64,000 nucleotides of DNA from Longimicrobiales bacterium (lineage in GTDB: Bacteria > Gemmatimonadota > Gemmatimonadetes > Longimicrobiales > Gaopeijiaceae). Below the pieces are notes generated by a model, which was given only the letters and a program-made list of their open reading frames with translations, was not told the DNA's origin and did not search any database. The stretch's first letter is position 1. Each line of letters begins with the position of its first letter. The translations under genes were made by a program, and so were the position numbers. Where the stretch lies: assembly GCA_965203485.1 (NCBI GenBank), contig OZ241892.1:128001-192000 (forward strand). The letters are read 5' to 3'. This document shows, one piece after another, positions 934 through 59,358 of the stretch.

Positions 934-1563
934 ATGAACGGACGGTTGCCGGTGGTGGGCGTGATGGGTTCGGGCACCAGCGAGCACGCGGGTCTCGCCG
1001 AGCCGTTGGGCGAAGCGTTGGCCCGGATGGGCGTGCACTTGCTGACCGGCGGAGGCGGAGGGGTGATGGCGGCGGCGTCGCGGGCGTTCGCGTCCGTCGA
1101 GGGGCGCGCCGGCTTGGTGATCGGCGTGTTGCCGGGCGTCGCCGGGGGGATGCGGCGAGCGGGCGGATCCGGGGAGTCTCCCCGGGGCTACCCGAACCCC
1201 TGGGTTGAACTGGAGGTCCGGACGCACCTGGGAGCCCGCGGCGCGAGCGGAGACGCGTGGGACTCGCGGAACCACGTCAACGTCCTGTCCTCGGACGTGG
1301 TCGTGGCCCTGCCGGGAGGCGCCGGCACCGCGTCCGAGATCGCGCTGGCTCTTTGCTACGGGCGGCCCGTCGTGCTCTTCGGCCGTGGCGAGCGCTCCGG
1401 GAGGCCGCCCGGCGGCGCCGAAGACGTGGCCGCGGCGTCCGCGCTGGAAGACGTGCTGGCCTTTGTGCGCCGCCGCTTGCCGGGCGGAAACGGCGAGGCT
1501 GCGGGAGACCGGCGGCCGCCCGGCGATTCCGGCCCCGGCCCGGCGCCGCGAGGCGCCTTGTGA
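934..1563 (+). CDS. LOG/SLOG-family nucleotide-binding protein (TIGR00725 / Moco-carrier-like)
   Basis: Motifs VGVMGSG, LLTGGGGGVM, SRNHVNVLSSDVVVALPGGAGTASEI. AAGGAGG lies upstream of ATG 934. Confidence 0.8.
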   Translation: MNGRLPVVGVMGSGTSEHAGLAEPLGEALARMGVHLLTGGGGGVMAAASRAFASVEGRAGLVIGVLPGVAGGMRRAGGSGESPRGYPNPWVELEVRTHLGARGASGDAWDSRNHVNVLSSDVVVALPGGAGTASEIALALCYGRPVVLFGRGERSGRPPGGAEDVAAASALEDVLAFVRRRLPGGNGEAAGDRRPPGDSGPGPAPRGAL

Positions 1564-2312
1564 CTCTCCTGCCGCCGACTCCGCCGCTTCCGGCCTTGGT
1601 GAAGGCGCCCGAGCTTCGCGGATGGGTGCGGCTGGCGGTGGGGTTCGGGCCCGTTTCCCGAATCGTCGGGCCTGTGGCGTTTGCGCGTGGATGGGACGAG
1701 TTGCGGGTGCTCTTGAGGCGTTCCCCCGGGGCGCCCGCCGTCGTGGAGCGAGGCGCGGCGCCCGACGAACGCTGGGCCGAGCTCGGAGCGCCGATCGTCC
1801 CAGTTTCGGAAACGGCGAGGGCGCGGGACGCCAAGGCGCTCGAGTCAGCCGTGCTTCGGTCCATCGACCCGGCGGGCGCTCTTGGGGTGCTCGAGGGCGT
1901 GGAGCGCCGGGCCGGCCGCGAGGCGCGGCGAATAGCGGCCCGAATCCTTTCGATGGCGCATCGCCGGTGCGCGGTGCCCGAGGTGGCGGCAGGTCTCGGG
2001 TATTCGCAGGCGACGCTCGCCCGCCGGTGCGCCGTCTTGGGCCTTCCCCGCGCGAAGCGTCTGATTTCGCTCGCCCGCGTCTTCACGGTGGAGCGCTTGG
2101 CGGAATGGAGCCGCCAGCCGTCGGGCGTCGTGGCCGTTGCGCTCGGATTCTCGAACCCCTCGAATTACCGTCGGCTGGTGCGCGGGATGTTCGGCGCGCC
2201 GCCGTCCGTGGTGCGCGAGCGTGGCGGGGCGCGCTACGTCGCCCGTGTGGTCTCAGGGACGCACAGTGCGGCGGGCTCGGCGCGGAGCCAAGACGCGCGT
2301 GACGAAAAATGA
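1560..2312 (+). CDS. AraC-family helix-turn-helix transcriptional regulator
   Basis: C-terminal double HTH: VPEVAAGLGYSQATLARR...VAVALGFSNPSNYRRLVRGMFGAPPS. The GTG start overlaps the upstream stop (GTGA). Confidence 0.8.
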   Translation: MTLLPPTPPLPALVKAPELRGWVRLAVGFGPVSRIVGPVAFARGWDELRVLLRRSPGAPAVVERGAAPDERWAELGAPIVPVSETARARDAKALESAVLRSIDPAGALGVLEGVERRAGREARRIAARILSMAHRRCAVPEVAAGLGYSQATLARRCAVLGLPRAKRLISLARVFTVERLAEWSRQPSGVVAVALGFSNPSNYRRLVRGMFGAPPSVVRERGGARYVARVVSGTHSAAGSARSQDARDEK

Positions 2313-2439
2313 CACTCCCGGATTCGGCCTCCCTGCGTATTGAAATCTACAGAGCGGCATTCCGATCCTTGCCGCGCTTCTTCCCGTCCGCGCACGAATC
2401 GGAGAAGAAAATGAGAAACGCTATTGAGGGATCCGAGGT
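2105..2439 (+). repeat. Direct repeat copy A (~330 bp: AraC 3' end, 40-bp motif, leader)
   Basis: Near-identical to 5962-6288 with a few substitutions and small indels. Confidence 0.95.
2301..2340 (+). promoter_or_regulatory. Conserved 40-bp cassette-head motif, copy 1 (putative activator site plus promoter)
   Basis: GACGAAAAATGACACTCCCGGATTCGGCCTCCCTGCGTAT. It contains the AraC stop codon. The repeat is certain; the function is inferred. Confidence 0.65.
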
Positions 2440-3715
2440 CCATTTTGGTATTCCGGGACCATGGCGTAGTCCGCCCTTCCGGTTCGCGCCGTCTATGATC
2501 CTCCCCTTTCTGCTCACTTTTACGATTCATTTGGATCTGTTCGCAATTTCTTCAGACCAGCAAGAGCGGTTTCCGGTTTTTCGTCTGTCGAGCACCTTCC
2601 TTTCCGTCTCTGATCAGCGTACTCATCATGGCGACGTCCGCGCCGCTTGGTTGGGATCGGCCATGTTTACGAGCGAAGGCGGATACGTCTTCGTGGACGA
2701 TTCCACAAGACAGGCATACGGAGCTCTTGGAACCGGCCGAATTCAGCCTCTGACCGACGCCGAGCCCGATCTTCCGTCCACCCTTCGCTTGATCGGACGA
2801 TTGTCCTCGGGCGAGATCGTTGCGGCCGATGATCACCGCGGCTCCATTAGCGCTGTCACCGCCGATGACATGACGGCGATAGGGGAATACGACGCGGTGC
2901 GCTGGCAACCTGCATGCGTCTTCGGCGACGGGACCGTAGTCGTACGGCCCAGCGTTCGAGCAAGGTTTGGCGTCCCGCAGGGATCGAAGGATGGGATCCA
3001 TCGCTACTCTGTGGAATATTCCGCGATGGATCGCCAAGGAATCGTACGGCCACTCGCAACAGTAGCGGGCGACGAAGCCACGTGGCTGACGACGCAAAGC
3101 AACGGCTGGCAATCTCGTCGTGCCACGTCCGTGATTTTCGGTCACAAGACGTTAGTGGCATGTTCGCACAACTACCTTGTTGTTGCACAAACCGATCTTG
3201 ACGTCGTGACTCTTGTCGATCGCGATGCCGACACTGTATTGCAATTTCCCTTGCCTGGTCGACGCCACTCCGTGTCTGCAACCCAAATCGACGCTCAAAG
3301 GCGCTTAAGCACGGCCACAGCCGGGCGCCGTAGTCGTATCGAGCGGCGCCGATACGAATACATGGCTTCAAAAACTGCAATACGGATCGTCCACCGTGAC
3401 CTCACGCCTGACGACATGGCGGCGGTTCCTTCCAACGACATTGCCCCGCCCGTCGATCAACTCTTTGTAGACGCTTCCGATCGCATTTGGATCAGAATGC
3501 TTCCATTGCCAAACGACGAAACGATCCACTGGCACGTCTGGAGCGTCGACCAGCGGGCAACGTCGTTTCTATTTAAGCTTCCTCGGCAAGCTAATGTTGC
3601 CGATGCATACGATGACCGCGTCTTGTTGCGCGTCGAAGAACCAGGGAGGCACGATCGTTTGATCGTTGCCCCGATGATCCGAAGTCCCGACAGTGGCCAG
3701 TTGCCCGCATTCTGA
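2411..3715 (+). CDS. Exported 6-bladed beta-propeller-like protein
   Basis: Shares IFGH, VVAQTD and PPVDQLFVDASDRIWIR motifs with the propeller half of 4101..5897. Start uncertain (2309, 2411 or 2495). The region is visibly AT-richer than the backbone. Confidence 0.7.
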   Translation: MRNAIEGSEVHFGIPGPWRSPPFRFAPSMILPFLLTFTIHLDLFAISSDQQERFPVFRLSSTFLSVSDQRTHHGDVRAAWLGSAMFTSEGGYVFVDDSTRQAYGALGTGRIQPLTDAEPDLPSTLRLIGRLSSGEIVAADDHRGSISAVTADDMTAIGEYDAVRWQPACVFGDGTVVVRPSVRARFGVPQGSKDGIHRYSVEYSAMDRQGIVRPLATVAGDEATWLTTQSNGWQSRRATSVIFGHKTLVACSHNYLVVAQTDLDVVTLVDRDADTVLQFPLPGRRHSVSATQIDAQRRLSTATAGRRSRIERRRYEYMASKTAIRIVHRDLTPDDMAAVPSNDIAPPVDQLFVDASDRIWIRMLPLPNDETIHWHVWSVDQRATSFLFKLPRQANVADAYDDRVLLRVEEPGRHDRLIVAPMIRSPDSGQLPAF

Positions 3716-3768
3716 CCCCAATCACGCTTCGGAACGACACACTTTAGCTTCAGGAAAAGGAGAAAGCC

Positions 3769-3972
3769 GTGAAATCGAATACACTCATCATTCGTTTGCT
3801 CGGATTGTTGCTGATCGCAATCCTGGCGGGCGATGCCGAGGCGGCCGGAGAAATGGACGTTGCTGGACCATGCGTGCCGTTTCTCGGGTGTACTCTCTGC
3901 AAAGCAGACAATCAAGACTGTCTAGTCATGTTTTGCGGCGATCACATTCACACCAACTGTGATTTCAACTGA
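3769..3972 (+). CDS. Small secreted Cys-rich peptide 1 (67 aa, 6 Cys)
   Basis: AAGGAG RBS before GTG. Signal-peptide-like N-terminus ending AEA. Mature part contains CVPFLGCTLCKADNQDCLVMFCGDHIHTNC. Confidence 0.8.
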   Translation: MKSNTLIIRLLGLLLIAILAGDAEAAGEMDVAGPCVPFLGCTLCKADNQDCLVMFCGDHIHTNCDFN

Positions 3973-4100
3973 GACAGGATGGGTTACACGACGATGTTGC
4001 AGGAGCTGAAGAAGTAAAGGCGTGACATGATCAGAAACGGGCAACTGGCCACGGGATCGCAAATGACAACGGTCGGCATGCATGAGGAAGGGGACGGCCA

Positions 4101-5897
4101 ATGACACTAGAAAGGCCAAGAAGCAAAAGACGTCTGGATCTTGTCGTAAACATTTCGATTCTGGCGACGCTCGCCTTTCTGCTCGCTGGGCCTTCCGGGC
4201 CTTTGGGTCGGATCATCGGGCGAACGTATAATGAATGGCAGGAACACCGTCGCATTGCGGCGACTTGGCCCGAACTCCTCAACAGCTCGGCGACGCTTGG
4301 CAGGAACGTTGACGACAACACTTGGAATGGGCCGGTGTTGGTAGAGTTTGTCGATTATCAATGTGCATCTTGCAGAAGGTTGGCGAATTCAGTATCGGAC
4401 GTGGCGGCATCTGGTCGAGCGAGGGTTGTGATTCGCCATTTTCCGATGGATGAACTGCATGGATGGGCTCGTGATGCCGCAAGGGCGGCGATCTGCGCGA
4501 CGAAGCAAGGTGCGTTTCCGCGAGTGCACGAGATGTTGCTGACCGAGACGGCGTGGATCGAGCAGAGGGACTGGACCAGTTTGGCAGGCAAGGCGAAAGT
4601 GCCGGAAATCGGCAACTTCGCGCGGTGCATGAGCGACCCCAGCACCGACCAGCAGATTGAGAACGACATTCGGACGGCAGAGCGATTGCGGGTTCGGGGG
4701 ACGCCGACGTTCGTGACGAAGTCTGGCCTTTTTGAAGGCGCGTCGGGCTTGGCTGAAGCGCTGGCGACGATGCGACCGCCCGGGCAGACGGTACAGGAAG
4801 ATGAGCGTGTTGGAACCTTGCATGTTGGAAAGGCCGCCATCTTCGATTCGTTTCTGCACCCGGAATCGTCCGTCTCTCGGCTGGGCCGGCTGGCAGGAGC
4901 ATTGTTCGTTGACGAGCAACGATTGTTGATAGGTGACCAGATGAACGCCGAGCTTCACTTGGTCGACTTGCCGACGGGCGACGTGACGACGATTGGGAGA
5001 CGGGGCGATGGACCCGGGGAATTCCATCTGCTCTTGGACGTCATGCGGACACGCGACGGATTTGCGGCATGGGATGCTGGACTGGCGAGGATCACGATGT
5101 TTTCCAAGACGGGCGATGTCGCCGAGAGTTGGTCTTATAATCGCATGTGGTTCAATCAGCCCATTGCGGCTCCTATCGCCGTGTTGTCGGATGGCGCCGT
5201 GGTCTTTCGCGACGGCGCGGAGCCGGCGGAGCGGCAAGGGCGCTTCAGGGACGAAACGCGATATGTGGAGGTAGCGAGAGACGGCATCGCCGGCATGGTG
5301 ACGGAGGCGCTGGGACGGGAGTACTGGAGCGGCAAGGGCGGATTCCAGCCGGTGATGTTCGGCCACCTCCTCTTGGAAGCACAGATTGGCGATCAGATCG
5401 CGGTCTCGCAAACCGACCTCGGCACGGTCAGGATAGTGAGCCGTGACGGAGAGGTCTCTGCGGAGCTCCGATTGGGACAGGAAAAACGGCCGTCCGCGTC
5501 GCAGGTGGAGACGACCCGGGAGAATGCGCGCAAGCAGTTGCGCCTCCGCATAGAGCGGGACGGACGACGTCCAAACGGAGCCGTTTTTCGACAAATCAAC
5601 GAAGCGAAATTGGCGGATGTCGACGACGTGCCGATGAACGAGACGTCGCCGCCCATCGACGCCATGTTCGTGGACATGGACGGGCGGCTTTGGTTGCGTG
5701 CCTACGCGATGCCAGACGACGACGGCAGCCGCTGGCAAGTGTGGAACCCGAACAACTTGAGTCGGCCGCAGGCGGTCTTGGTCGTTCAAGCCGACAAGGA
5801 GTTGCTCGATGCAAGCGGCGCTTATGTCGTCTTGCACGAGAGGAACGCCATGGGAATCGACCGCGTCCTCGTAGCCGCACTGGTGGAGGAGGATTGA
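4101..5897 (+). CDS. DsbA/thioredoxin-like domain fused to a beta-propeller domain
   Basis: N-terminal TM anchor; EFVDYQCASC, IRHFP and VRGTPTF (DsbA-type); then IGRRGDGPGEF and PPIDAMFVDMDGRLWLR (propeller). Confidence 0.85.
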   Translation: MTLERPRSKRRLDLVVNISILATLAFLLAGPSGPLGRIIGRTYNEWQEHRRIAATWPELLNSSATLGRNVDDNTWNGPVLVEFVDYQCASCRRLANSVSDVAASGRARVVIRHFPMDELHGWARDAARAAICATKQGAFPRVHEMLLTETAWIEQRDWTSLAGKAKVPEIGNFARCMSDPSTDQQIENDIRTAERLRVRGTPTFVTKSGLFEGASGLAEALATMRPPGQTVQEDERVGTLHVGKAAIFDSFLHPESSVSRLGRLAGALFVDEQRLLIGDQMNAELHLVDLPTGDVTTIGRRGDGPGEFHLLLDVMRTRDGFAAWDAGLARITMFSKTGDVAESWSYNRMWFNQPIAAPIAVLSDGAVVFRDGAEPAERQGRFRDETRYVEVARDGIAGMVTEALGREYWSGKGGFQPVMFGHLLLEAQIGDQIAVSQTDLGTVRIVSRDGEVSAELRLGQEKRPSASQVETTRENARKQLRLRIERDGRRPNGAVFRQINEAKLADVDDVPMNETSPPIDAMFVDMDGRLWLRAYAMPDDDGSRWQVWNPNNLSRPQAVLVVQADKELLDASGAYVVLHERNAMGIDRVLVAALVEED

Positions 5898-5961
5898 GCG
5901 TCGCGGTGCAACTCTTCGTCGCCGGGAGCACTCAGGCCCTTTGAGTGCGATCCCTGTTGCG

Positions 5962-6288
5962 ATGGAGCCGCCCAGCCGTCGGACGTCGTGGCCGTCGCGC
6001 TCGGATTTTCGAACCCCTCGAATTACCGTCGGCTGGTGCGCGGGACGTTCGGCGCGCCGCCGTCCGTGGTACGCGAGCGCGGCGGGGCGCGCTACGTCGC
6101 CCGAGTGGTCTCGGGGACGCACGGCGCGGCGGGCCTGGCGCGGAGCCAAGACGCGCGTGACGAAAAATGACACTCCCGGATTCGGCCTCCCTGCGTATTG
6201 AATCTACAGAGCGGCATTCCGATCCTTTGCCGCGCTTCTTCCCATCTACGCACGAATCAAATGAGAAACGCATTGAGGGACCCGAGGT
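5962..6288 (+). repeat. Direct repeat copy B: orphan 3' fragment of the AraC gene plus motif and leader
   Basis: Encodes AVALGFSNPSNYRRLVRGTFGAPPSVVRERGG...DARDEK without the 5' part of the gene. Matches 2105-2439. Confidence 0.95.
6159..6198 (+). promoter_or_regulatory. Conserved 40-bp cassette-head motif, copy 2
   Basis: Identical to 2301-2340. Confidence 0.65.
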
Positions 6289-6298
6289 AGGTGGCAAC

Positions 6299-7388
6299 GT
6301 GAAGAATCCGGCTCGCGTCCGCTCGGCCCTCGCGGTCTTCGCCTTGGCCGCGGGATGCGGAGACGCAACAAATCAGGAACGCCTGGTGTTGCCCGAGCCG
6401 ACGGGCGAAGCCGGGGTCCCAGCCAGCGAGAACGGCAACGTCGCGCTTGTCGGCGAATCCACCGCGTGCGTGGTGGACTCGTACTTTGTCCAGATCCATT
6501 GCGTGACTCGCGACGAACGGACAGTCGCGGCCTGGGGGAGCGAAGGCGAAGGTCCCGGAGAGTTCGGCAACATTGCCGCCCTAGTGCGCGGGCCCGAAGA
6601 AACGGTGGCCGTCGTGGACCACCAACTGAGCCGGATCACCACGTTCCGGCTTTCCGGCGAGCCCGTGTCCGAGACGCCCCTCCCGTCTCTCTTCGGCACG
6701 AGGGGCCCCTGGGCGTCACATTGCAGGGCCACTACATGGAGATCGGCCTCCCCTTGGACATCCGGCAAGTGGAGATCGACGCCGCGTCGGGCGAGCTGGA
6801 GTGGGAGCGCCGTTCCCTGTTTCCTATCCGCGGTGCGACGATGCAAATGAGAACGCCGAAGCGAGAGGCTCCGCTTTCGGGTCCCCTGCATCCGGTGGCG
6901 GAATGGTTTTCCCGGCATGCGACGGCCAGCTGATCCTGTTCCCCGACCGAGACGGCGACGCTACGGTGACGATTCCGCGCCCCGGGTTTGCCACCGAGTT
7001 CCCCAACGAGCGCGAAGTCGTCAAGTTCGCGGAGTCCCGGCGGCGGACGACGCCGTGGAGGTCCAACGCCGACAACGATGTCGAGGCCGACGTCGCCGCT
7101 TTTCGCCAAGAACCGAAGCAGTGGCTCCATCTCGGCCCCAAGCTGGACGACGCGGGGCGGCTGTGGCTGTTGACGAGCCGCGACCGCGACGAATTCTCGT
7201 ACATCGAACTGGTTGTCGGCGCCGAATACGCCGGCACCGTGAGGGTGGCGGACCGCGTGGTCGGCCTTGACGTCCTCGGCAATTCCCTCGCCGTCCTCGT
7301 CGAACTCCCGGCAGGCCCCGGCGACTCCGACGGCATGGAAGATCGAACGGTGGTATGGTACGACATCTCCGGATTGCCCAGCTCATGA
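6299..7388 (+). pseudogene. Beta-propeller lipoprotein with two apparent frameshifts (~6705, ~6820)
   Basis: GTG start, lipobox LAAG-C, WGSEGEGPGEF. The C-terminal LDDAGRLWLLT lies in another frame. May be a sequencing or assembly artefact. Confidence 0.7.
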
Positions 7389-7471
7389 CGAGCGGTGGGG
7401 TCTATAAGGACGATTTGCGGGCGGCGGCTCCACCACCAATCCACATCCACATGCAAGGCCTTTAGCGATTC

Positions 7472-8625
7472 ATGACTGGTCGGGCCATTCGATTGCTGGC
7501 GGCGTGCGCCGCGGGATTGGCCATCTGCTGCGCCCCCGAGCAGGAGGCGGCCAGCGGGGACGAGGCCGGCAGGCTCCGTCCGCTGGCGTCCACGCTCGCA
7601 AGAGACATCGACCTGGAGGCCGGCGGAGGTCCTCCGGTGGTCGGACTTGACTACCTTGCGGCCGATTCGGTCGGCAACCTGTTCGTGCTGGACGCAAGCG
7701 CAGGGCACCTCCACAAGTACACGGCGGCGGGTCGGCATGTCGGCACCCTGGCAGGTGCGGACGGCGAACCGGTGTTTCTCCGCCAGCCCGCTGGTCCGTC
7801 GCCAGGGGGCGTCGTGGTGGGCCGCGACGGCAACGTCTACGTGGCGGCTGCTCCGCACGGCATGTTCGACCCGGAGTTGACCGAGAACTGGGTCAAGGGG
7901 GCCGTCACGCGTGTCTCGCCCGCCTTGGCGGTCGACACGGTCTTCACGATTCGAGGCCCGGAGGTCGTCGGTGGACTGTCCGCGTCGCCCCGCGAACTGG
8001 CGGTCGTGCTAGGACGTCCGAGGGACGCCGTGGAGCGGAGGTTCGGGTTGACCGAAGAAGAAGTCCTCGCGCGCGAAGAAGTTCTCCTCTTGACCTACGA
8101 CGGCGTGCCGACGACAGCCTTCATCCCGCAGACGAACGAAGGCACGGAGTGCCCTATTGGGGAGGATGGTTCAGAACCTACACAGCCGCCGCGGGCAACG
8201 AACTCTTGGTCGTCAGCTCCCTTTATCCGATTCATCGTTACCGGCCGGGAGGAGAACTGGCAGGAACCTTCGGGAGCGCGTCGGCTTCTTTCCGGCAACC
8301 GAGCCGGCCGGAGCCTCGGTCGTTCCCTACGGCGGATGCGCGATACTACGAGTGGCGGAGTTCGTTCACGACCATAGGAGGCATGCATGTCGTGGCGGAC
8401 TCGTTGGTGGTGGTCGTCTTGGAGGATCGCAACGCCGACGAGCTTGCCGCGGCGCAGTGGTCGTATCGGGCGGACGTCTACGACTTGCGCTCCGGCACTC
8501 CAGTGGCGCGAGACGTCGGCCTCGAGGGCCCAGTGCTGCACGCCGACACTTTGTTGCACGTGGCTTGGCGGCCGACCGGCGACGGTTGGCATGTCGGCCT
8601 CTTCGACTTGTCGGAGGGCCGATGA
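7472..8625 (+). pseudogene. Beta-propeller (NHL-like) lipoprotein with one apparent frameshift (~8140)
   Basis: Signal with Cys (LAIC-C), LAADSVGNLFVLD and VVVGRDGNVYV repeats. Protein-like sequence continues in ORF 8149..8625, whose stop overlaps the next ATG. Confidence 0.65.
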
Positions 8626-9824
8626 CGAAGCACATGCCAGAGGCAATTCACCGTTGGCGGCACCTTTCGGTGGCATGCCAGCGTCTGGGACCAGGACGGA
8701 TCGCTGTTCTTGCCTTGGCAGTCGTGTCGGCCAGTTGTGCCGACGCGGATCCGCCGCCAACGACGATGGCGACGGTGAACGTCGCCGACGCCCCACAGTG
8801 GAGCGTGGCGTCAAGCTTCGAGGTGGAACAGGACGAAGACGAACCCCTGGGTCGGGTGACCGGGGGATTGCTCCCGTCTGCCAACCTCATTGCAATCGCG
8901 GACGGTCTCAACTATCGCGTCGTTGTGGCGGATTCGTTGGGACGGCGCCTGCGGACGGTCGGCCGGGCCGGAATGGGACCGCTCGAGTTCGTGGAGATTG
9001 AGTGGATGGCCCGGTGGCCAGGAGATTCGGTGTTCGTCTGGGATTCTCGGTCAAGACGCTATTCGGTGTTTTCGCCGGAGACCGGCGAGGGCCGGACGGT
9101 TCTCCCGCAAGGAATGGAGACCCCGGTTTCCCGGGCGTTGCCGGGCGACGGCGGAGGCTTATGGGTGCTCGGCGTGGTGTTGGTCCCCAAGGAAGCTTCG
9201 CTCCCCCGCGGCCCGCACCGGTTCCGTCACGACTTGGGCTACTGGCAAGGGACGGGCCGCGTGAAGAAGGTGCATTCTCTGGCAGGACAAGGGCGCGTGG
9301 GACGGGGGCGGCCATGGCTGGGGGCCCCGATCACGGCGACCACGACGGGCGACGGCCTTTTCTACTTCACCGAGGGAGAGAGCCCCACGGTTGCCGTGCT
9401 CGATTCCACTGGCGTCGTGTTGCGGGAGATCAACGTGCGCGGCATGGCCGTTCAACTCACGGACGCGCGGCGCCAGAAGCTTGTTGAATGGCTGTACGAG
9501 TCGTCCGGCTATTCCGTCGCCGCCGTGAACCGGTCGCTCGATGCCGTGCCTTTGCCGGAGCAGTTCGACGCGATCTCCCGGATGGTCTTCGGCCGCGACG
9601 GAACGCTGTGGCTAGGCCAGCGGCCGGTGCCGGAGACGGAACGGCTCTGGCTCAACGTGACCACGGAGGGCGAGCCGATAAGGCAGGTGGCGATGCCCGC
9701 GGGAAGCGGCGTCATGCTGGACGCCGCCGGAGATCGTCTGCTCTTCCTGACGCGCGACGAACTGGACTTGGACCACATTCACGTGCACGTGATCGTTGCG
9801 GGAGGCCGGGGAAGACTGAGGTAA
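8622..9824 (+). CDS. Beta-propeller lipoprotein
   Basis: ATGA overlap with the upstream stop; lipobox-like VSAS-C; VGRAGMGPLEF, GDSVFVWD, GRDGTLWL and DELDLDHIHV. Confidence 0.8.
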   Translation: MTKHMPEAIHRWRHLSVACQRLGPGRIAVLALAVVSASCADADPPPTTMATVNVADAPQWSVASSFEVEQDEDEPLGRVTGGLLPSANLIAIADGLNYRVVVADSLGRRLRTVGRAGMGPLEFVEIEWMARWPGDSVFVWDSRSRRYSVFSPETGEGRTVLPQGMETPVSRALPGDGGGLWVLGVVLVPKEASLPRGPHRFRHDLGYWQGTGRVKKVHSLAGQGRVGRGRPWLGAPITATTTGDGLFYFTEGESPTVAVLDSTGVVLREINVRGMAVQLTDARRQKLVEWLYESSGYSVAAVNRSLDAVPLPEQFDAISRMVFGRDGTLWLGQRPVPETERLWLNVTTEGEPIRQVAMPAGSGVMLDAAGDRLLFLTRDELDLDHIHVHVIVAGGRGRLR

Positions 9825-9842
9825 GACGGCCGTTGCTGAGGC

Positions 9843-10125
9843 GTCGACTTGTCGGGCCGCTATCGCGCATCGGCGCTGTTGCCGGACAGGGTTGAAGTGA
9901 TCGGCGCATGGAGGAACAGGTCGATCGGGATCGAGCATGCCACAAAGCCGTTTGACCCGGTTCTCAAGTCGTGTCAATTGCGGGAAGCGATTCCGATGTA
10001 GCGCGTCTCGCCAATGGCATCGAACCCGGGAGCCTTGCGAAATCGGCAGCGGGGAGTTCTTGCGTTGCCTTCATGCCCGGAATCCCTACGCGCCGGCCGA
10101 GTCGGCGGAGAACGCGGGACCCCGA
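9843..10125 (+). pseudogene. Decayed copy of the DsbA-propeller 3' end and ECF sigma 5' end
   Basis: Colinear similarity to ~14254-14548 (e.g. gctgttgccggaca.ggttgaagtg, cccggttctcaagtcgt, cgaaatcggcagcggggagttcttgcg). Truncated by the ISL3 remnant. Confidence 0.85.
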
Positions 10126-11133
10126 GGCTCTTCCCCTGTTTCGGTGGGCGTCGTAGGATGGACGGGGGTACGGCATGGCTCTTGGAGCGAGGAGAGCGGA
10201 TGGAGATGCGGGAGTGGGTGGAGCGGCTGATGGGTCTGGGGCCGGAGTGGCGGATCGAGCGGGTGGACGAGGATTCGGAGCGCCAGGAGGCGCGGGTGGT
10301 GTTTGGCGCGCAGGGCGGGCCCGCCGTTGCGGTGCCCGGAGTGCGGGCGCGCGTGTCCGGGCTGCGACGTGCGACGCCGGGAGTGGCGGGGATTGGACGC
10401 ATGGGGATACAAGACGTTCGTGGTCTGCGACGTGCCCCGGGTGGAGTGTCCCGAGCACGGGGTGGCGACGACGCGGGCGGCCGTGGGCGGAGGGGGCGGT
10501 CGAGGTACACGGCGGCGTTCGAGTTGCTGGCGATTGGCTGGTTGCGCGAGGCGAGCGTGCTTGCGGTGTCGCGGCTGCTGCGCTTGAGCTGGACGGCGGT
10601 CGCCGGGATCATGGAGCGGGCGGTGCGCCGGGGCTTGGCGCGGCGCGGCGGCTGAGCGTGGACGATGACGTCGTTCAAGCGAGGCCACGCCTACGTGACG
10701 GTGGTGTCGGACGCGGAGACGCAGGACGTGCTGCACGTGGCGCCGGGGCGCCGGCAAGAAGACGCACGCCGAGAAGCTGGCGTTCGCCGAGTTGCGCAAA
10801 CTCGGCGTGGCTGCGCTGGTTGCAACGGGCGTCGGCGTCCGGCTCGGGCCGGTCGAGAAGGCGGCGGCGATGGGTCCCGGACGCGCCTGTGAGGCATCGT
10901 CAACGCCGTCGTGCTGAACGCGACCAACGGCCCGGCCGAGGGCGTCGCCAGCCGCATCCAAGCGATCGGGGCTCGGTGTCGCGGCTTCCGCAACCAGGAG
11001 CGCTTCGCCGCGGCCATTCTCTTCCACCTCGGCGGCCTCGACCTATGTCCGCCCCCCGCCCAGCGCTGACCGCCGTGCCCCTTTGCCACCTCCGCTCCGT
11101 CTTTTCCCCTCCCGCCACATCAGGGGAAGAGCC
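10126..11133 (+). mobile_element. ISL3-family insertion sequence remnant (frameshifted, internally deleted transposase)
   Basis: Terminal inverted repeats GGCTCTTCCCCTG / CAGGGGAAGAGCC. Fragments CPECG...[25 protein letters not shown] and NGPAEG...GFRNQERF lie in different frames. No clear target duplication. Confidence 0.85.
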
Positions 11134-11168
11134 GAATTTGTCCAGTTACGCCGCTCCTCGAAGCACGT

Positions 11169-11208
11169 GACGAAAAATGACACTCCGGAATTCCGCCTAC
11201 CTGCGTAT
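11169..11208 (+). promoter_or_regulatory. Conserved 40-bp cassette-head motif, copy 3
   Basis: GACGAAAAATGACACTCCGGAATTCCGCCTACCTGCGTAT, 36/40 identical to copy 1. Ends 48 nt before the peptide 2 ATG. Confidence 0.65.
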
Positions 11209-11256
11209 CCACTCATGTAAGCGGCGGTTCCACCACGAATCCACAAAGGAGGTTTC

Positions 11257-11484
11257 ATGAACCGCTTCATCCTGAACCTGCTGGCCGGCGCGACGATTCT
11301 GGTCGGCGGGTGGGTGCTCCTGTTCCCGGCGTCGGCGTCGGCGGACCCCGACGAGGCCTGTTGCAAGGTCACCATCACGAACGCCGACGGTAGCAAGGTC
11401 GAGCGCAAGTGTTGCGGGGACCGGTGCGACATCGACAGCGCCAACCAATGCAATGCGTGCACGGGGCTGGAATGCCTGCACTAG
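11257..11484 (+). CDS. Small secreted Cys-rich peptide 2 (75 aa, 8 Cys)
   Basis: AAGGAGG RBS; signal peptide ending ASA; CC-x15-CC-GDR-C-x7-C-x2-C-x4-C framework. Paralog at 59070..59273. Confidence 0.9.
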   Translation: MNRFILNLLAGATILVGGWVLLFPASASADPDEACCKVTITNADGSKVERKCCGDRCDIDSANQCNACTGLECLH

Positions 11485-12653
11485 CCTGCGGTCTCAGGCC
11501 CGTCGGTCGTGGGAGGGAGGCGCATGCCTCCCTCCCACTGGCTGGCGCAGTCGCCGTGGGGCAATTCTTGCTCGCGGCTTGCTCCGCCGACGCTCCCGCG
11601 GACGGGCGGCCATGGGCTTCGGCTCCGGACGGCGCCTGGATCGACGTGCGGATGGAAGTCGTCTCCGGCGCCGACCTGTCCCTCGGCGGCGTGGGCAACG
11701 TCGCCTTCGGCCGGCTGGGCGTCGTTTACGTTGAAGACTACACGGGACCGGAGTTGCTGGTCTTGGACTCCCTGCTGAGACCGGTGGCAAGCGTCGGGCG
11801 ACGAGGCGAAGGGCCGGGAGAATTTCTCTCGATAAGCACGCTTCAGGTTCTTCCTGGCGACAGCCTCATGGTGTTCGACTCCCGCCTCAGCCGCATGACC
11901 ATCTTCTCGGAAGAACGTCTCGACTCCGGCCGGACCACCGCCGTCCCCCCGCTCCTTTCCGTTTCGAGGCTTTGGCGATTGCCTGGCCCGGAGCGAAGAC
12001 ACATGGCCTACGATGTCCAACCGTTCTATGCCCGCGACAGCGGCGAGACGGACGACGAACGCTTCGACGTGCTTTCCATCCTCGACGGGTCGGCGCAGGA
12101 GACGGCATTCGACTCCGTTCTGCTGGTGCCACAACCCAGATCATTAGTTGTCAGATCTGGCGGTAGCATCACGACAGGGCCTCATCCCTACGGGAGCGCC
12201 AACTTCTTCGGAGTGTTGCCCGGCGGCGGCTTTGCCCACGTGACAACGCGCGCCCTGGCGGTGACGATCGTCGGCGCAGACGGCAAGCAGACCGAGTTTT
12301 CTCATCCGACGATTCCGATTCCCGTGTCGTCGGAGCACCTCGATTCCACTCTGGCAGCGTTGAATTCGGATCAAGCCCGAGTTCTCCGTGACGGCGCACC
12401 CTACACGTGGCCTCCCGTCAGAACCATGATCGTCGACGACCAGGACCGGATATGGCTTGCACTGCGAAGACAGCCCGGCGAGACGCATCGAGAGTGGGCT
12501 GCGTTCACGCGCGACGGCCGCCACGTCGCGTCGGTGCGCCTCGCGACCAGCCTATGGGCTCGTGCCATCAGCGGGGACAAGCTCTTGGCCTTGGCCCTCG
12601 ACGACCTCGACGTGCCAACGCTTCGTCTCTACCGCATCTTGTGGGATAGATAA
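11472..12653 (+). CDS. Beta-propeller lipoprotein
   Basis: Lipobox LAA-C; VGRRGEGPGEF, PGDSLMVFD, VDDQDRIWL and DDLDVPTL. Clear paralog of 57877..59082. Start uncertain. Confidence 0.85.
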   Translation: MPALACGLRPVGRGREAHASLPLAGAVAVGQFLLAACSADAPADGRPWASAPDGAWIDVRMEVVSGADLSLGGVGNVAFGRLGVVYVEDYTGPELLVLDSLLRPVASVGRRGEGPGEFLSISTLQVLPGDSLMVFDSRLSRMTIFSEERLDSGRTTAVPPLLSVSRLWRLPGPERRHMAYDVQPFYARDSGETDDERFDVLSILDGSAQETAFDSVLLVPQPRSLVVRSGGSITTGPHPYGSANFFGVLPGGGFAHVTTRALAVTIVGADGKQTEFSHPTIPIPVSSEHLDSTLAALNSDQARVLRDGAPYTWPPVRTMIVDDQDRIWLALRRQPGETHREWAAFTRDGRHVASVRLATSLWARAISGDKLLALALDDLDVPTLRLYRILWDR

Positions 12654-14411
12654 GTGAAGAAAATCGTCTCCAACGTCGTGACCGCCGTGCTGGTCGTCGG
12701 TGCTCTGCTGGTGACGGTTGCCGTCGCTCGTCGGGAGTTCACGGCGTCGTCCGCGACGCCGGCCTCGGAGCCCCGCCCAGCAGAGCCACGTCCAGTAGAC
12801 GACTGGCAAGCGCTGGCGACCGAGGGTGTCCGGATAGGGTCCCGCGACGCCCCCCTCGTGTTGATCGAGTTTGCCGATTTTCAGTGCCCGTTTTGCGCTG
12901 TGGCGGCCAACAACCTGCGCGAGGCCCTGTCGCACTACGGAGATGACGTTGCCGTCGTGTTTCGGCATTTTCCCCTTGAACACATTCACCCGCACGCCTA
13001 CGCTGCTGCCGTGGCGGCGGAGTGCGCCGCCTCGCAAGATCGCTTCGAAGCGTTCCACGACTTGCTTTTCGCCAGGCAGGACGAGATCGGCGAGACGCCA
13101 TGGGCGCAGTTCGCGGCGGCGGCGGCGGTGGACACCGTTCCCTTTGCCAGGTGCATGGAGGCGACATGGCCTCGCGACAGGGTGTTCGAGGACGCTCGCG
13201 CCGCGAGAAAAATCGGCCTTACGGGGACCCCGTCCATCGTCGTCGGCGGCCTTCTGCTGTCTGGCACGCCCAGCGTGGCGACGTTGCGAGAACACATTGG
13301 TCGGGCGTTGGCGGAAATCACGAAGGACTCGGCGGGACGCGCCTTGGTCGTTGATCGAGCCGCTGGCTCCGACCGCTTGCGACCATGGGCGTCGGGACCA
13401 TGGCTTGAAATCGAAGCTGAACGGACGAAATCGACGCCGGGGGGGTTTCTGGACTATCTCGGTATCGTTGCAGTTGGTCCGAGCGGGCGAATATATGCCG
13501 TGGAGCGGGGGAGCCGTCAAGTCTTGGTGTTCGATTCGAACCTGGAGTACGAGCACGCCCTGCCCAGTTCAATGGGGCGCAACCCCGTTTCCGCTCGCGA
13601 AGTGGACGGCGACAGCATCGTCTTCTTCGACTACGATTCCAAGACGACCCTTGTTTGGTCCGGCTACCACGCCGACCCAGGCCGCCGATCGAGCGTTCCC
13701 GGATTGGAGGGCTACGATCCATATGATGTCTGGAGGCTCGGAAACACGGCGGATTTCGTCGTGGCGTACCGTCGCCGCTCTTACTCGCAGGACGACCTCG
13801 ATGAACAGCGCTCGGATGTTGTTGGCCTAGCTAGGCGCGGGGCGCTCCGTGTCGATTCGATATTGTCTTTTCCGTCTCGCGAAGTGCTGGTTGTGACGCC
13901 CGAAGACGGGGGATTCTCGGTGGGGCCGCATCCGTTCGGGCGACGGCCGTACCTTCGTCTGGTGGCCGGCGACAAGATCGTCTATGCTCTTTCGGACGAG
14001 TTCAAGGTCACGATATTGAATCTGGCGGCCGGAACCGAGAGTCGGTGGTCGTACGAGGCGGAGGTGACGCAGGTCGAGGACGACGAAGTGGAGCGAGCGG
14101 CGGCGTCCATGCGGTCGGCATCCAGGGCAGATGCCCTGCTCGAAAACGCTCCGTACTTTCGTTCAGTGCTCGCGGGCTTGGCGGTGGACGACGATCGGGA
14201 ACTCATTTGGGTCGGCTTGAGAGCTCAGGCGGATTCGTTGGAGTGGGCGGCGTTCGACCTGTCGGGCCGCCATCGAGCGTCGTTGCTGTTGCCGGACAAG
14301 GTTGAAGTGGTTGGCGCGTGGAGGGACAGGTTGATTGGAATCGAATACGACAGAAAGCCCTTTGGCCCGGTTCTCAAGTCGTATTATTTGCGAGAATCGG
14401 GTACGATGTAG
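12654..14411 (+). CDS. DsbA/thioredoxin-like domain fused to a beta-propeller domain
   Basis: TM anchor; EFADFQCPFC, FRHFPL and GLTGTPS; propeller half with RPWASG, GPHPFG and LAVDDDRELIWV. Confidence 0.88.
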   Translation: MKKIVSNVVTAVLVVGALLVTVAVARREFTASSATPASEPRPAEPRPVDDWQALATEGVRIGSRDAPLVLIEFADFQCPFCAVAANNLREALSHYGDDVAVVFRHFPLEHIHPHAYAAAVAAECAASQDRFEAFHDLLFARQDEIGETPWAQFAAAAAVDTVPFARCMEATWPRDRVFEDARAARKIGLTGTPSIVVGGLLLSGTPSVATLREHIGRALAEITKDSAGRALVVDRAAGSDRLRPWASGPWLEIEAERTKSTPGGFLDYLGIVAVGPSGRIYAVERGSRQVLVFDSNLEYEHALPSSMGRNPVSAREVDGDSIVFFDYDSKTTLVWSGYHADPGRRSSVPGLEGYDPYDVWRLGNTADFVVAYRRRSYSQDDLDEQRSDVVGLARRGALRVDSILSFPSREVLVVTPEDGGFSVGPHPFGRRPYLRLVAGDKIVYALSDEFKVTILNLAAGTESRWSYEAEVTQVEDDEVERAAASMRSASRADALLENAPYFRSVLAGLAVDDDRELIWVGLRAQADSLEWAAFDLSGRHRASLLLPDKVEVVGAWRDRLIGIEYDRKPFGPVLKSYYLRESGTM

Positions 14412-14425
14412 ACGGCCTCTTGCAA

Positions 14426-15025
14426 ATGGAATTGGGCGGTGAGCCGCTGTTCCGCCGTGGCGAAATCGGCAGCGGGGAGTTCTTGCGCCGCCTTCATGCC
14501 CGAGATCCAGACGCATTGGCCGACTTGGCCGAGGAAGCGGGTCCGCGAATGCTCGGACGCATTCGTTCGCTGATTTCCGACGAAGAAGACGCCAACGAAC
14601 TATACCAGGAATGCTGGTTGCACCTCATGAAGCAGTTGGACAAGTGCACGAAACCGCGCAGCGTGGTGGGATGGGCGGTCGTGATCAGCGCGAATCACTG
14701 CAAGTCGTTGTTGCGCCGAAAGAAGGGCGGTCCCGTCCTCGTTCCCTTGGAGGAGGCAGAGGACATCGCCGACACGGCGCCGAATCCGGAAACGAAGTTG
14801 CAACGAATCACCGTGGAAGAAGCCGTGTGGGCTGCATTGGACCTGTTGCCCGAGCGGCAGCGAGAAGCGGTGATCTCGACGCTGATGGAAGGACGAAGCA
14901 ACGCCGAAACAGCCGTAGAGATGGACGTAAGCCCGCGGACGGTCAGCTCGTTGGTTGCCGCCGCTGTTCGGAAGCTTCAGGAGCGACGGGAGCTTCGACA
15001 ACTATTTCAGGACATGTTCCACTGA
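14426..15025 (+). CDS. ECF-type RNA polymerase sigma factor
   Basis: Region 2-like DANELYQECWLHL...GWAVVISANHC and region 4-like ALDLLPERQREAV...EGRSNAETAVEMDVSPRTVSS. Confidence 0.85.
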   Translation: MELGGEPLFRRGEIGSGEFLRRLHARDPDALADLAEEAGPRMLGRIRSLISDEEDANELYQECWLHLMKQLDKCTKPRSVVGWAVVISANHCKSLLRRKKGGPVLVPLEEAEDIADTAPNPETKLQRITVEEAVWAALDLLPERQREAVISTLMEGRSNAETAVEMDVSPRTVSSLVAAAVRKLQERRELRQLFQDMFH

Positions 15026-15137
15026 CGCGCAGGGAGGCGGAGAAGACATGCACAGGGTACGAGAGAGGAATCGTGGGATCGACGACCAGAATCTGCCGAA
15101 AAGTGCACGAACGCCGACTAGCTAGGAGAGCTCAAGA

Positions 15138-15374
15138 ATGAAGACAATGACGAGATGGATCATGTTGGGGACGTTGATCAGCGTCGCTTTGGCGCCGACG
15201 ACGTTCTTGGCGACGCGACGGCCGACGGAATGCTCCAGCTCCGGCGTCCGCCTGTTTGACTGTTGCCGGACGGCCAAGGACGGCGAGACCGGCTGTTGCA
15301 CCAGATGCTGCTGGTGGCCTCGTGGGTGTGGTGATTGCCCCGATCCGGCAGTCGGGGCGACTGGCGCATCATGA
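15138..15374 (+). CDS. Small exported Cys-rich peptide 3 (78 aa, 9 Cys, three CC pairs)
   Basis: AGGAG RBS; hydrophobic N-terminus; C...CCRTAKDGETGCCTRCCWWPRGCGDC. The stop overlaps the next ATG (ATGA). Confidence 0.75.
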   Translation: MKTMTRWIMLGTLISVALAPTTFLATRRPTECSSSGVRLFDCCRTAKDGETGCCTRCCWWPRGCGDCPDPAVGATGAS

Positions 15375-16528
15375 AAGACCGTTCGGTGGTGTCGTCAATG
15401 ATCGAGAGCGTCTTCGCGCGTCATGCGGCCGGAAACGTCGTAAAATTGTCGGGAATCTATTTGTTGTACGCTCTCTGGTTCACTCTCACTTTCCATGCAG
15501 GCATGCCCTACTTGGAACGCATCTTGTTGACCGGCGCCGGCGCAAGCTTTCAGATGGCAATTCTGGCAGGCGCGGCGGTCTTCATGTCTGCCACCGACCA
15601 CTTCGACGTGTTCGGAGACAAAGCGCCGGAGACTCGCAAGAGGGACTGGGGATGCTTGGCGCTTTTCGGCATCGCCGCCTGTTTGTTGATGGAGGTGGGG
15701 CTTCCCCTGACGGATTGGTTGCTGGAGGTGGTGGTTGGAATGCCGGAGGCGGACACCGAGACGCCGTGGAGCTGGACGATGCGCTACTTGGTTCCCGTAT
15801 CCGTGGCCGCGTTCGTCGTCGCATCCGGCGTTGCGGGGGCGGCGGTGGGTCGCATGACCGATTGGTCGTCGCCCGGACGCCGTCGCTTGGTGCGATGGCT
15901 GGGAGCGTTGGGGTTCACGGTGTTGTTCGCGGGCTCGCTGGTCGTCTGGACCGAAGTCGTGATCGTTAACGGATTTCCCTTCGCTGTCATCCCCGTTGTG
16001 CCGCTGCTACTGCCGCTCGTGGCCGCTTGTTGGTTGGTCCGGTCCCAACGCTATGGCGTGCTGGAGGTGTTGGGCTTGAGGCGGAGCGGCGGCCTCGCTC
16101 CCGAGGTGGTCGACCGGCTTGTGCAGGTGGTCGTAGACGCAGACGAGGAAGGCGCTTCGAGCATCGAGAAAGCGGCGAGGACCCCGGAAGAACTGGAGAT
16201 GGCTCGCTTCCTGAAATGGCTCCGGCACGCGGCAGCGCCTTCATTAGCGGTGAGCAAGGCGGAAGCGGAGGATATGGTGGCCTTTGCGCTGAAGATGGCC
16301 TCAGTGCCGCCGACGAAGCGGTCGCCCCACCGAGCATGGCGGCCGGTCTGGAGCAAAATCGGCGAGTTCGGATCGTCTTGGGCGATCTTGTCGGTCGGCT
16401 TGGCGACGGCAGGTTTGTCGGGTGGCCTGATTCCCAGTCCAGTGCCCGCACTGGCGGTTGGCGGATTCGGAGCGACCGTCAGCATGTTCCAAAGACTCCG
16501 CGATGCAAACAGCCCGCCGAAGGCATAG
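15371..16528 (+). CDS. Polytopic membrane protein of unknown function
   Basis: About six N-terminal hydrophobic segments, a soluble stretch, then further C-terminal hydrophobic segments. Translationally coupled to peptide 3. Confidence 0.75.
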   Translation: MKDRSVVSSMIESVFARHAAGNVVKLSGIYLLYALWFTLTFHAGMPYLERILLTGAGASFQMAILAGAAVFMSATDHFDVFGDKAPETRKRDWGCLALFGIAACLLMEVGLPLTDWLLEVVVGMPEADTETPWSWTMRYLVPVSVAAFVVASGVAGAAVGRMTDWSSPGRRRLVRWLGALGFTVLFAGSLVVWTEVVIVNGFPFAVIPVVPLLLPLVAACWLVRSQRYGVLEVLGLRRSGGLAPEVVDRLVQVVVDADEEGASSIEKAARTPEELEMARFLKWLRHAAAPSLAVSKAEAEDMVAFALKMASVPPTKRSPHRAWRPVWSKIGEFGSSWAILSVGLATAGLSGGLIPSPVPALAVGGFGATVSMFQRLRDANSPPKA

Positions 16529-59082: not shown

Positions 59083-59273
59083 CCGATGCCCGAGCACGCC
59101 TCGCACTGTCCGTGCTTGTCAATCGAGCATCGGTCGCCGCAGCACTTCTTCTCGCCGTTGTGATAGCAGCAGGCTTGGCTGTTGGCGGCCGATGCCGAAG
59201 ACGGCGACAGGAGCATCCATCCTCCGACCAGGATGGTCGCCCCGGCTAGCAGGTTGAGGATGAAGCGGTTCAT
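59070..59273 (-). CDS. Small secreted Cys-rich peptide 4 (67 aa, 8 Cys), paralog of peptide 2
   Basis: AAGGAGG RBS; MNRFILNLLAGATILVGGW identical to peptide 2; CCYHNGEKKCCGDRCSIDKHGQCEACSGIGCLM. Confidence 0.9.
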   Translation of the reverse strand: MNRFILNLLAGATILVGGWMLLSPSSASAANSQACCYHNGEKKCCGDRCSIDKHGQCEACSGIGCLM

Positions 59274-59318: not shown

Positions 59319-59358
59319 ATACGCAGGGAGGCCGAATCGGGGAGTGTCATTTTTCGTC
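59319..59358 (-). promoter_or_regulatory. Conserved 40-bp cassette-head motif, copy 4
   Basis: The reverse complement is 39/40 identical to copy 1. Ends 45 nt before the peptide 4 ATG. Confidence 0.65.

Follow-up and report, generated by a model that had tools for sequence, protein, structure and literature searches.

Small proteins of the NVEALA family (PF14055) in Bacteroidota adjoin six-bladed propeller lipoproteins of the DUF5128, TolB_like or BF3164 type, and to our knowledge these NVEALA/DUF5128 loci are themselves uncharacterised. Here we report a 15-kb array of genes for secreted cysteine-rich peptides, beta-propeller proteins and DsbA-propeller fusions in a Longimicrobiales bacterium (Gemmatimonadota). 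The array lies in a 64,000-nucleotide stretch of contig OZ241892.1, here called the window, which corresponds to C1:128001-192000 of the source genome, G000 (3.56 Mb, single contig, 69% GC, 95% complete). A sequence-only reading of this DNA had noticed the array, likened it to NVEALA loci and taken it for a system not yet characterised. The last of these statements still stands, as we found no curated family or published description matching the module in a literature search that largely excluded subscription journals. The module is real, conserved and, as far as searched, undescribed, and on sequence grounds it probably serves in peptide recognition and signalling.

The array resembles the NVEALA loci in placing a small exported Cys-containing protein beside a six-bladed propeller lipoprotein, in its weak DUF5128 scores and in its fold matches to Bacteroides BVU_1028 and BF0058, but it differs in having DsbA-propeller fusions, a link to an LptF/G-fold protein and an anti-sigma domain, and no C39 peptidase in the block. 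Neither the four window peptides nor 23 members of the peptide class that we call A matched PF14055, a genome-wide search with this family came up blank, as did its controls, and the earlier likeness to NVEALA does not extend beyond analogy. Window proteins fell below the cut-off for DUF5128 (PF17170), which 15 of the 23 genome matches pass, over short stretches only. In the main text that describes them, bacteroidetocin loci have a double-glycine peptidase ABC exporter and no immunity protein, and a propeller is never mentioned (PMC6671954). They share with our array a small Cys peptide, a neighbouring thiol oxidoreductase and a multi-pass membrane protein, whereas the array has Sec-type leaders, 6-8 Cys, propellers and an extracytoplasmic function (ECF) sigma factor, and has no double-glycine leader or ABC exporter.

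Other parts of the array recall other systems. As in SigW-RsiW, an ECF gene is adjacent to an anti-sigma-type gene with membrane helices, zinc and zinc-free forms occur, and the short-form loci described below match RsiW; unlike in SigW-RsiW, the domain is joined either to an LptF/G-fold protein or, in relatives, to a propeller, and a gene for a Cys-rich peptide accompanies it. Zinc and zinc-free forms also both occur among class I anti-sigma (ASDI) domains, about 44% of which have no zinc motif (PMC7406223). The main text of a preprint on ECF re-classification mentions no Gemmatimonad, propeller or DsbA, and its supplements may bear on the matter (10.1101/2019.12.11.873521). A thioredoxin-fold domain and a six-bladed NHL propeller share one chain in NHLRC2 and SOQ1, but the motif there is CCINC, whereas ours is a DsbA-type domain with CPFC or CASC and the fusions sit in peptide cassettes; bacterial NHLRC2 homologues have, in that work, no conserved neighbours (PMC6107167). 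The array fails a defining feature of each of the NVEALA/DUF5128, bacteroidetocin, LptFG and NHLRC2 types. It is also unlike enzyme-modified clusters for ribosomally synthesised and post-translationally modified peptides: radical SAM, LanM, YcaO and C39 exporter matches were absent from the sets of 20 and 17 block open reading frames (ORFs) scanned, in agreement with the sequence-only reading.

The array contains three different types of cassette. Cassette B comprises propeller 2408 (genes are named by their first window coordinate), a 6-Cys peptide and DsbA-propeller 4101; cassette A an 8-Cys peptide, propeller 11472 and DsbA-propeller 12654; and cassette C an ECF sigma gene, a CC-CC-CC peptide and a membrane protein. 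A further peptide-plus-propeller cassette, also of class A and already suspected from the sequence, was confirmed within the window at 57877-59273 on the minus strand. The genes of these cassettes are as follows.

2408..3715, plus strand: class B stand-alone six-bladed propeller without a lipobox (profile match; class B clade, support 99)
3769..3972, plus strand: class B peptide, 67 aa, signal and 6 Cys, mature net charge -5 (relatives in 3/200 family genomes, paralogue in G000)
4101..5897, plus strand: membrane-anchored DsbA (CASC) fused to a class B propeller (Thioredoxin_4, E 1e-14; same fusion at G000 7455-9287 and in G007)
11257..11484, plus strand: class A peptide, 75 aa, signal and CC-CC-C-C-C-C (8 Cys), mature net charge -4 (family in 13/150 other order genomes)
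11472..12653, plus strand: class A NHL-type propeller lipoprotein (class A clade, support 99)
12654..14411, plus strand: membrane-anchored DsbA (CPFC, GTP cis-Pro loop) fused to a class A propeller (8 full-length fused relatives, 40-68%, among 47 matches)
14426..15025, plus strand: ECF sigma factor (TIGR02937 above cut-off, Sigma70_r2, r4_2)
15138..15374, plus strand: class C peptide, 78 aa, signal and CC-CC-CC-C-C with one extra Cys (9 Cys; 8 of 9 Cys invariant in the family)
15371..16528, plus strand: membrane protein with LptF/LptG-fold helices (5-229) and no jellyroll, a probable anti-sigma domain and a transmembrane hairpin (242-381) (model, pLDDT [predicted local distance difference test] 82)
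57877..59082, minus strand: second class A propeller lipoprotein (49% identity to 11472; the G001 counterpart, at 84% identity, is located at the tail of the main array and has no peptide)
59070..59273, minus strand: second class A peptide, 67 aa, 8 Cys (against 11257, leader 90% and core 53% identical)

The peptides behave as genuine genes. Leaders in classes A, B and C are hydrophobic and Sec-type, and the Cys pattern is constant within each class. Genome-wide, 9 of 11 ORFs with a signal, a ribosome-binding site (RBS) and at least 6 Cys lie within 2 kb of a same-strand propeller, where 0.5 would be expected (5 of 7 outside the window), under thresholds chosen with the window peptides already known. 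A looser filter was positive at 11/46 G000 propeller loci versus 2/418 control windows, and two further peptide loci are known besides. Core pN (non-synonymous change) was lower than pS (synonymous change) in all five peptide pairs, narrowly in the paralogue pair, from which we conclude that the peptides are coding genes under purifying selection; with core pN at 0.22-0.34 versus 0.10-0.16 in neighbouring genes, the cores change about twice as fast. Propeller adjacency, the 2/418 control rate and pN < pS together rule out chance ORFs. No window peptide matches Pfam or NCBIfam at cut-off. A full-library search with the class A peptide gave 13 matches, 8 of them of peptide size, the class C peptide matched in 22/200 other order genomes (one match being spurious), and the best score for a peptide in the protein atlas, 0.81, was to unnamed Acidobacteriota clusters. 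The stop codon of the class A peptide overlaps the start of propeller lipoprotein 11472, an arrangement of translational coupling. Mature net charges of the four window peptides are -5, -4, +1 and 0, which weakens the option of a cationic toxin.

Further secreted Cys-rich peptides with other patterns are encoded in G000 (C1: 455061, 1217341, 696875, 1019869, 2562168, 2420704, 2426002, 2027256, 1474274 and 460044), including two more classes, D and E, each with its own propeller clade. Most class C leaders (e.g. L124-L151) have an Asn halfway along their hydrophobic segment, which is unusual in a signal peptide; the window copy has Ser.

Across genera, each peptide class is found next to its own clade of propellers. 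In a 92-row propeller tree made by FastTree, with long-branch warnings, propellers grouped by the class of the neighbouring peptide (class A, 15 rows, support 99; B, 11, 99; D, 5, 98; E, 4, 100; the D and E labels come mostly from G000, and kin are not independent). The peptide-class label changes 5 times on this tree versus 27.7 times when shuffled (0/200 shuffles), and a single genome contributes propellers to several of the clades. A propeller stood within 1.5 kb of the peptide at 12 of 14 distinct class A loci. When the propellers beside class A peptides were compared with the 78 paralogue ORFs of G000, the class A pair was the best match for 13 of the 14 distinct loci that have such a propeller, a count that adds two loci to the peptide-search set. 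Class B neighbours likewise match the class B clade in L153, L155, L156 and L016. Five class B loci of G007 have no propeller within 1.5 kb, and the wider G007 region holds a propeller and a DsbA fusion among four peptides. At L201 (G007 1808000-1826000), four class B peptides, two of them identical, are interspersed with insertion sequences in the surroundings of a single propeller and a single DsbA-propeller fusion.

The pairing is asymmetric, in that peptides are nearly always accompanied by a propeller but the reverse is not so. We also collected 20 propeller-first loci, made up of 17 matches below E 1e-80 not reached via a peptide and the next three non-G000 matches. A strict rule of one peptide per propeller is ruled out by the presence of a peptide at only 11/46 G000 propeller loci and 2/20 propeller-first loci (7/25 when five excluded peptide-linked propeller matches are counted). 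In the tree, solo class A propellers are mixed with peptide-linked ones, and at least 6 changes are forced; that tree labelled the G001 counterpart of 57877 as peptide-linked though it has no adjacent peptide, which leaves the interleaving unaffected.

Comparison of the same site in relatives showed that peptides are lost often while partner genes are kept. Genomes G001 and G002 carry a counterpart array at the same chromosomal site, and sequencing runs X1, X5, X8 and X9 were compared through contigs. G002 has cassettes A and C. G001 has an intact 6299 gene, cassette A, a 12654 homologue without DsbA, and a cassette C in which the peptide core is absent and the leader retained. In contigs of X5, X8 and X9, a 369-nt in-frame deletion takes out the class B core, so that the leader runs straight into the DsbA fusion; in X9, from contigs only, the class A peptide gene is deleted and cassette C precedes cassette A. 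This repeated loss with partners kept argues against propellers that are chaperones only and fits receptors or immunity proteins; the chaperone option raised by the sequence-only reading is weakened too by the solo propeller loci. At L010 (G000 2451219), a decayed cassette consists of a 40-nt element, described below, followed by a frameshifted class A leader without a core or propeller.

The propellers themselves belong to a large family. The propeller profile found 78 ORF matches in G000, about 60 of them full-length with a median identity of 18%, and relatives occur in 126/251 genomes across the phylum. Conserved columns of the 60 full-length paralogues are mostly Gly and structural residues. 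PAL-like propeller enzymes have a conserved His/metal active site, which these propellers do not share: columns conserved at 60% or more among the 60 paralogues contained no catalytic His or metal set, class A had no invariant His, and the match to PAM lyase was weak. The profile also matches animal NHL repeats, over about 80 profile positions only. Seven propeller loci were found in the block, as proposed from the sequence, but two of them (6299-7388 and 7472-8625) are frameshifted. The description of these propellers as lipoproteins holds for the four with a lipobox; 2408 has none, and the DsbA fusions have an N-terminal membrane helix instead. Of the two motifs, one or both of which the seven were said to share, GxxGxGPxEF and the DxxxRxW type are each found by pattern in 4/7 (with a one-residue-longer form of the latter in 12654), and the 7472/8149 gene has neither.

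Two of the seven propellers are fused to a DsbA-type CxxC domain, as the sequence had suggested. Both domains score above the Pfam cut-offs (PF13462, PF01323); the CxxC Cys pair and Thr-Pro are invariant in 10/10 aligned DsbA rows, and the N-terminal helix is present. The 8 full-length fused relatives of 12654 rule out an artefactual origin of the fusion. A model of 12654 (pLDDT 72, weak for the DsbA domain) has a membrane helix followed by DsbA and propeller domains, and the best target-normalised fold matches of its propeller are six-bladed NHL domains, with template modelling (TM) scores of 0.61-0.65, Bacteroides BVU_1028 and BF0058 being listed as well. In the tree, the fused propellers of 4101 and 12654 each fall in their own cassette's clade. 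Linkage of DsbA to peptide and propeller recurs beyond the window: a set of 80 DsbA loci included 13 with Gemmatimonadota titles, of which 11 have a peptide on the same strand and 10 a propeller, versus 6/67 and 1/67 for the others. Five of the 7 DsbA-type domains of G000 are fused to propellers. The genome, which is 95% complete, also encodes VKOR and DsbD, with a DsbA-VKOR pair located elsewhere, and no DsbB was found in it.

Cassette C supplies the link to regulation. The model of membrane protein 15371 aligned to LptF and LptG with Z 13.6-14.1 and a root mean square deviation of 4.2-4.4 over 206-214 residues (next row, Z 8.7; helical bundles alone can reach Z near 13), and Foldseek ranked LptG first. 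Scores to PF03739 (LptF_LptG) were weak, in 4/24 members of the membrane-protein family, and the protein atlas gave no usable match. The protein is like LptF/LptG in its transmembrane helical fold and unlike them in that the model is all-helical, without the beta-jellyroll, and the gene is single. No Walker A ORF for a partner ATPase (LptB) was found in 30 short loci, where one edge ORF at L170 resembles an ABC tail, or in 11 long loci of 11-18 kb, an ATPase acting in trans being possible; a canonical lptFG pair lies elsewhere in G000. Of 27 class C loci in other genomes, many of them from one genus (g36) and so not independent, the membrane protein is present at 23, a redoxin-like gene at 24 and, within 1.5 kb, a class C propeller at 16. 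The redoxin-like gene (L196, L197, L199, L200, L095 and others) has a CxxC in 2/9 copies examined.

Thirty-three loci, three of them from G000, showed three mutually exclusive arrangements, with one locus having none: a short membrane protein with a separate Hx3Cx2C protein (17 loci), a short membrane protein with a separate zinc-free domain protein (8 loci), and a long membrane protein with the zinc-free domain fused and nothing separate (7 loci). A separate anti-sigma-type gene was thus present with 0/7 long forms versus 25/26 short forms. The Hx3Cx2C zinc forms match RsiW (E 2e-4) and, below cut-off, NF052375; the C-terminus of 15371 gives a match of 97.7% to the zinc-free domain and of 64% to the zinc forms. 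The putative anti-sigma domain is both adjacent to an ECF gene and membrane-anchored. In G043, G053 and G118, the zinc-free domain runs via membrane helices into a full propeller that nests among class C propellers (support 99-100). To judge from sequence, this fusion would have the layout of a membrane anti-sigma factor with an outside sensor, and it appears to tie propeller, membrane protein and ECF factor into one pathway. The signal option, one of several roles named by the sequence-only reading, is strengthened by this ECF/anti-sigma link.

The reading that we favour, with a probability of roughly 45%, is polymorphic ligand-receptor recognition of Cys-rich peptides by matched propellers, feeding an ECF switch. 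It starts from what is observed directly, namely the gene content, the class-specific pairing, the fusions, the LptF/G-like model fold and the repeated loss of peptide cores with partners kept; the steps of the mechanism we infer from linkage, fusion and fold. The small Cys-rich protein would likely be exported by Sec and, as gene linkage suggests, oxidised by the cassette's own DsbA, and the oxidised peptide would likely be bound as a ligand by the propeller clade of its class. For class C, the bound state is predicted to act via the LptF/G-fold protein on the anti-sigma domain and so to free the ECF factor, which together with the AraC-type protein encoded at the head of the block would drive the cassettes, the 40-nt element being a candidate promoter read by the ECF factor or bound by the AraC-type protein. 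The DsbA-fused propeller would hold the cognate peptide during folding, and the lipoprotein copy would be the receptor. Because receptors are kept after their own peptide is lost, the many solo propellers would serve to sense or neutralise peptides from neighbouring cells. A more far-reaching version, which we put forward tentatively, is a polymorphic language of disulfide mini-proteins in Gemmatimonadota, in which a DsbA with its own receptor domain would fold each class, a matched propeller would read it, an LptF/G subunit without jellyroll and ATPase would have been repurposed as the transducer to anti-sigma and ECF factors, and solo propellers, dozens in each genome, would read or neutralise neighbours' peptides.

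Several observations weigh against recognition and signalling. Among the propeller-first loci, 18/20 are without a peptide and 19/20 without DsbA, a result that goes partly against the sequence-only reading, which had expected Cys-rich peptides beside homologous propeller/DsbA loci elsewhere. The DsbA-VKOR pair elsewhere in G000 means that the cassette DsbA may be dispensable, and G001 and G002 have either lost it or carry a broken copy. Neither class A nor class B comes with a dedicated transducer, so direct support for signalling is limited to class C, where the counts draw heavily on one genus. Even there, the window cassette is without a redoxin or a class C propeller, and a search of G000 for such a propeller found none (best E 4e-10). 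The anti-sigma assignment of the zinc-free domain is mainly positional: this domain has no PDB match, and the fused-domain set matches the zinc forms at only 9%. The fusion loci of G043, G053 and G118 have no peptide, and neither have the eight loci with a separate zinc-free domain gene, so that the input to the sensor may be something other than a peptide. Nor does the block encode a way across the outer membrane. The original proposal of a Sec-dependent disulfide mini-protein system is nonetheless upheld in part, through purifying selection, Sec-type leaders, DsbA linkage and clade pairing, with the correction that there are three cassette types rather than one system.

Much of the same evidence could describe a polymorphic toxin-immunity system, in which the mini-proteins would be narrow-spectrum envelope antagonists of kin, the propeller lipoproteins sequestering immunity proteins, the solo propellers orphan immunity, and the ECF module a control on production. 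This explanation accounts equally well for the loss pattern, in which the peptide goes and the propeller stays; a constant leader before a fast-changing core (pN 0.22-0.34 versus 0.10-0.16 in neighbours), about 60 full-length propeller paralogues at a median identity of 18%, and the translational coupling of peptide and lipoprotein all suit it, and bacteroidetocin loci, in the text cited, also have their own thiol oxidoreductase (PMC6671954). We regard it as doubtful all the same, as the mature peptides are neutral or acidic, the block has no double-glycine leader or exporter, and propeller fusions to DsbA and to a domain in the anti-sigma slot would be unneeded for immunity alone. Those same anti-sigma-slot fusions count against propellers that are folding adaptors, each holding its cognate peptide for DsbA while the finished peptide acts elsewhere. 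That 5/7 DsbA-type domains of G000 are fused to propellers, that in classes A and B the fused propeller comes from the cassette's own clade, and that NHLRC2 has a cleft between its Trx-like and propeller domains (PMC6107167) would favour adaptors; most class A propellers, however, have no nearby peptide or DsbA and still have open frames, and G001 lost the DsbA domain but kept the propeller. As a general account this is quite unlikely, and an adaptor role may still be true of the DsbA-fused copies.

An envelope stress system, in which the peptides would remain in the periplasm of the producer as metal or oxidant buffers controlled by the ECF and AraC-type factors, with the propellers and membrane protein sensing the state of the envelope rather than a peptide, is also unlikely. 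It would explain the absence of an exporter from the block, the acidic Cys-rich cores, the eight loci where the membrane protein, ECF gene and anti-sigma-propeller fusion occur without a peptide, and the lipid contact suggested by the LptF/G fold. Fixed, class-specific even Cys patterns and a coupled DsbA nevertheless fit disulfide folding and not free thiols, and a buffer role does not readily explain why there should be several unrelated peptide classes that each have a propeller clade of their own. Very improbable, finally, is the idea that peptides and NHL propellers are eukaryote-like effectors aimed at a sponge host. A close relative was found on long contigs of a run labelled sponge metagenome, and the propeller profile matches animal NHL repeats, but that match spans only about 80 profile positions, related propellers occur in 126/251 genomes across the phylum, and peptide cassettes occur in other families.

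If recognition and signalling by matched peptides and propellers is correct, it would give a function to one of the phylum's largest unexplained gene expansions (78 propeller ORF matches in G000; 126/251 genomes), a peptide signalling route for diderm bacteria without modifying enzymes or a dedicated exporter, and a use of an LptF/G-type fold outside lipopolysaccharide transport. The matched pairs make the idea directly testable through cognate versus non-cognate binding. Peptide scaffolds encoded alongside dedicated oxidases also offer a supply of disulfide-rich mini-proteins, and if the peptides were instead toxins with propeller immunity, the array would still be an undescribed antagonism system.

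The 15-kb block is a composite of the three cassette types and debris, joined at a variable, recombining site. All genes are on the plus strand, in the order AraC-type gene, 40-nt element, cassette B, duplicated AraC end with an element, three propellers, a scar, an ISL3 remnant, an element, cassette A and cassette C; between cassettes B and A, propeller genes 6299 and 7472 are frameshifted and 8625 is intact. The GC content of the block is 58-66% versus 69-74% in the flanks, and runs containing it are marine or sponge metagenomes wherever labelled. The earlier outline of a single-strand block with three Cys-rich peptides (6, 8 and 9 Cys), an AraC gene at its head and an ECF gene near its tail was correct, each part being located and the regulators matching HTH_18 and TIGR02937; it had overlooked the membrane protein at 15371-16528, the 40-nt element repeated before cassettes, the ISL3 remnant and two duplicated gene ends. 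The features outside the cassettes are as follows.

1560..2312, plus strand: AraC-type regulator (HTH_18, E 1e-9; same-site genes 66-75% identical in G001 and G002)
2301..2340, plus strand: 40-nt element copy 1, overlapping the AraC stop (fixed 18-nt block, 16 variable nt, fixed 6-nt block)
5972..6202, plus strand: duplicated AraC 3' end with element copy 2 (6159-6198) (95% identity to 2114-2344; direct repeat flanking the class B cassette)
6299..7388, plus strand: propeller lipoprotein pseudogene with single-base deletions near 6705 and 6811 (intact G001 gene 85-87% identical)
7472..8625, plus strand: divergent pseudogene of a propeller lipoprotein, with a frameshift near 8150 (a paralogue at G000 1969838-1971037 is intact)
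8625..9824, plus strand: propeller lipoprotein without a peptide (paired with a 7472-type gene at G000 1.97 Mb too)
9844..10079, plus strand: recombination scar made of duplicated gene ends, 3' from the 12654 fusion and 5' from the ECF gene (82% identity to 14254-14411)
about 10170..11070 (approximate limits), plus strand: ISL3 transposase remnant (HTH_Tnp_ISL3, E 6e-8; elevated depth from other copies)
11169..11208, plus strand: element copy 3, heading the class A and class C operon (repeat)
59319..59358, minus strand: element copy 4 (repeat)

Assembly error was ruled out as the source of the frameshifts in 6299 and 7472, as contigs of X5, X8 and the possible source run X1 match gap-free (X8 at a depth of only about 3). 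Copies of the 40-nt element number 6 in G000, 3 in G001, 1 in G002 and 0 in 38 other relatives, and its two-block shape suggests that it is a promoter. A weight matrix of the element gave one weaker G000 site, at 12612, ahead of an operon of ECF, AraC and class B genes, and nothing convincing at loci from other genera; sigma-70 promoter and terminator scans gave results at chance level. Both regulator types tend to lie near propellers, within 2.5 kb of one in 7/7 AraC-type homologous ORF matches and 7/11 ECF matches in G000.

An S9-type peptidase gene (window 16568-19498) borders the array, is kept at the site in G001 and G002 and evolves like a core gene. Directly beside the fourth cassette, at 54097-57482, genes for a GmrSD_N protein and a RiboL-PSP-HEPN protein, probably a defence pair, lie on a 53% GC stretch and are followed by an IS3 transposase. 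Six tandem paralogous genes of about 640-690 aa form two groups of three (21527-28172 and 35472-41605) with an outer-membrane efflux gene between the groups; they matched no Pfam/NCBIfam family at cut-off among those scanned. Finally, the window carries at 47783-48768 two copies of a sequence of at least 300 nt, 85% identical and 686 nt apart.

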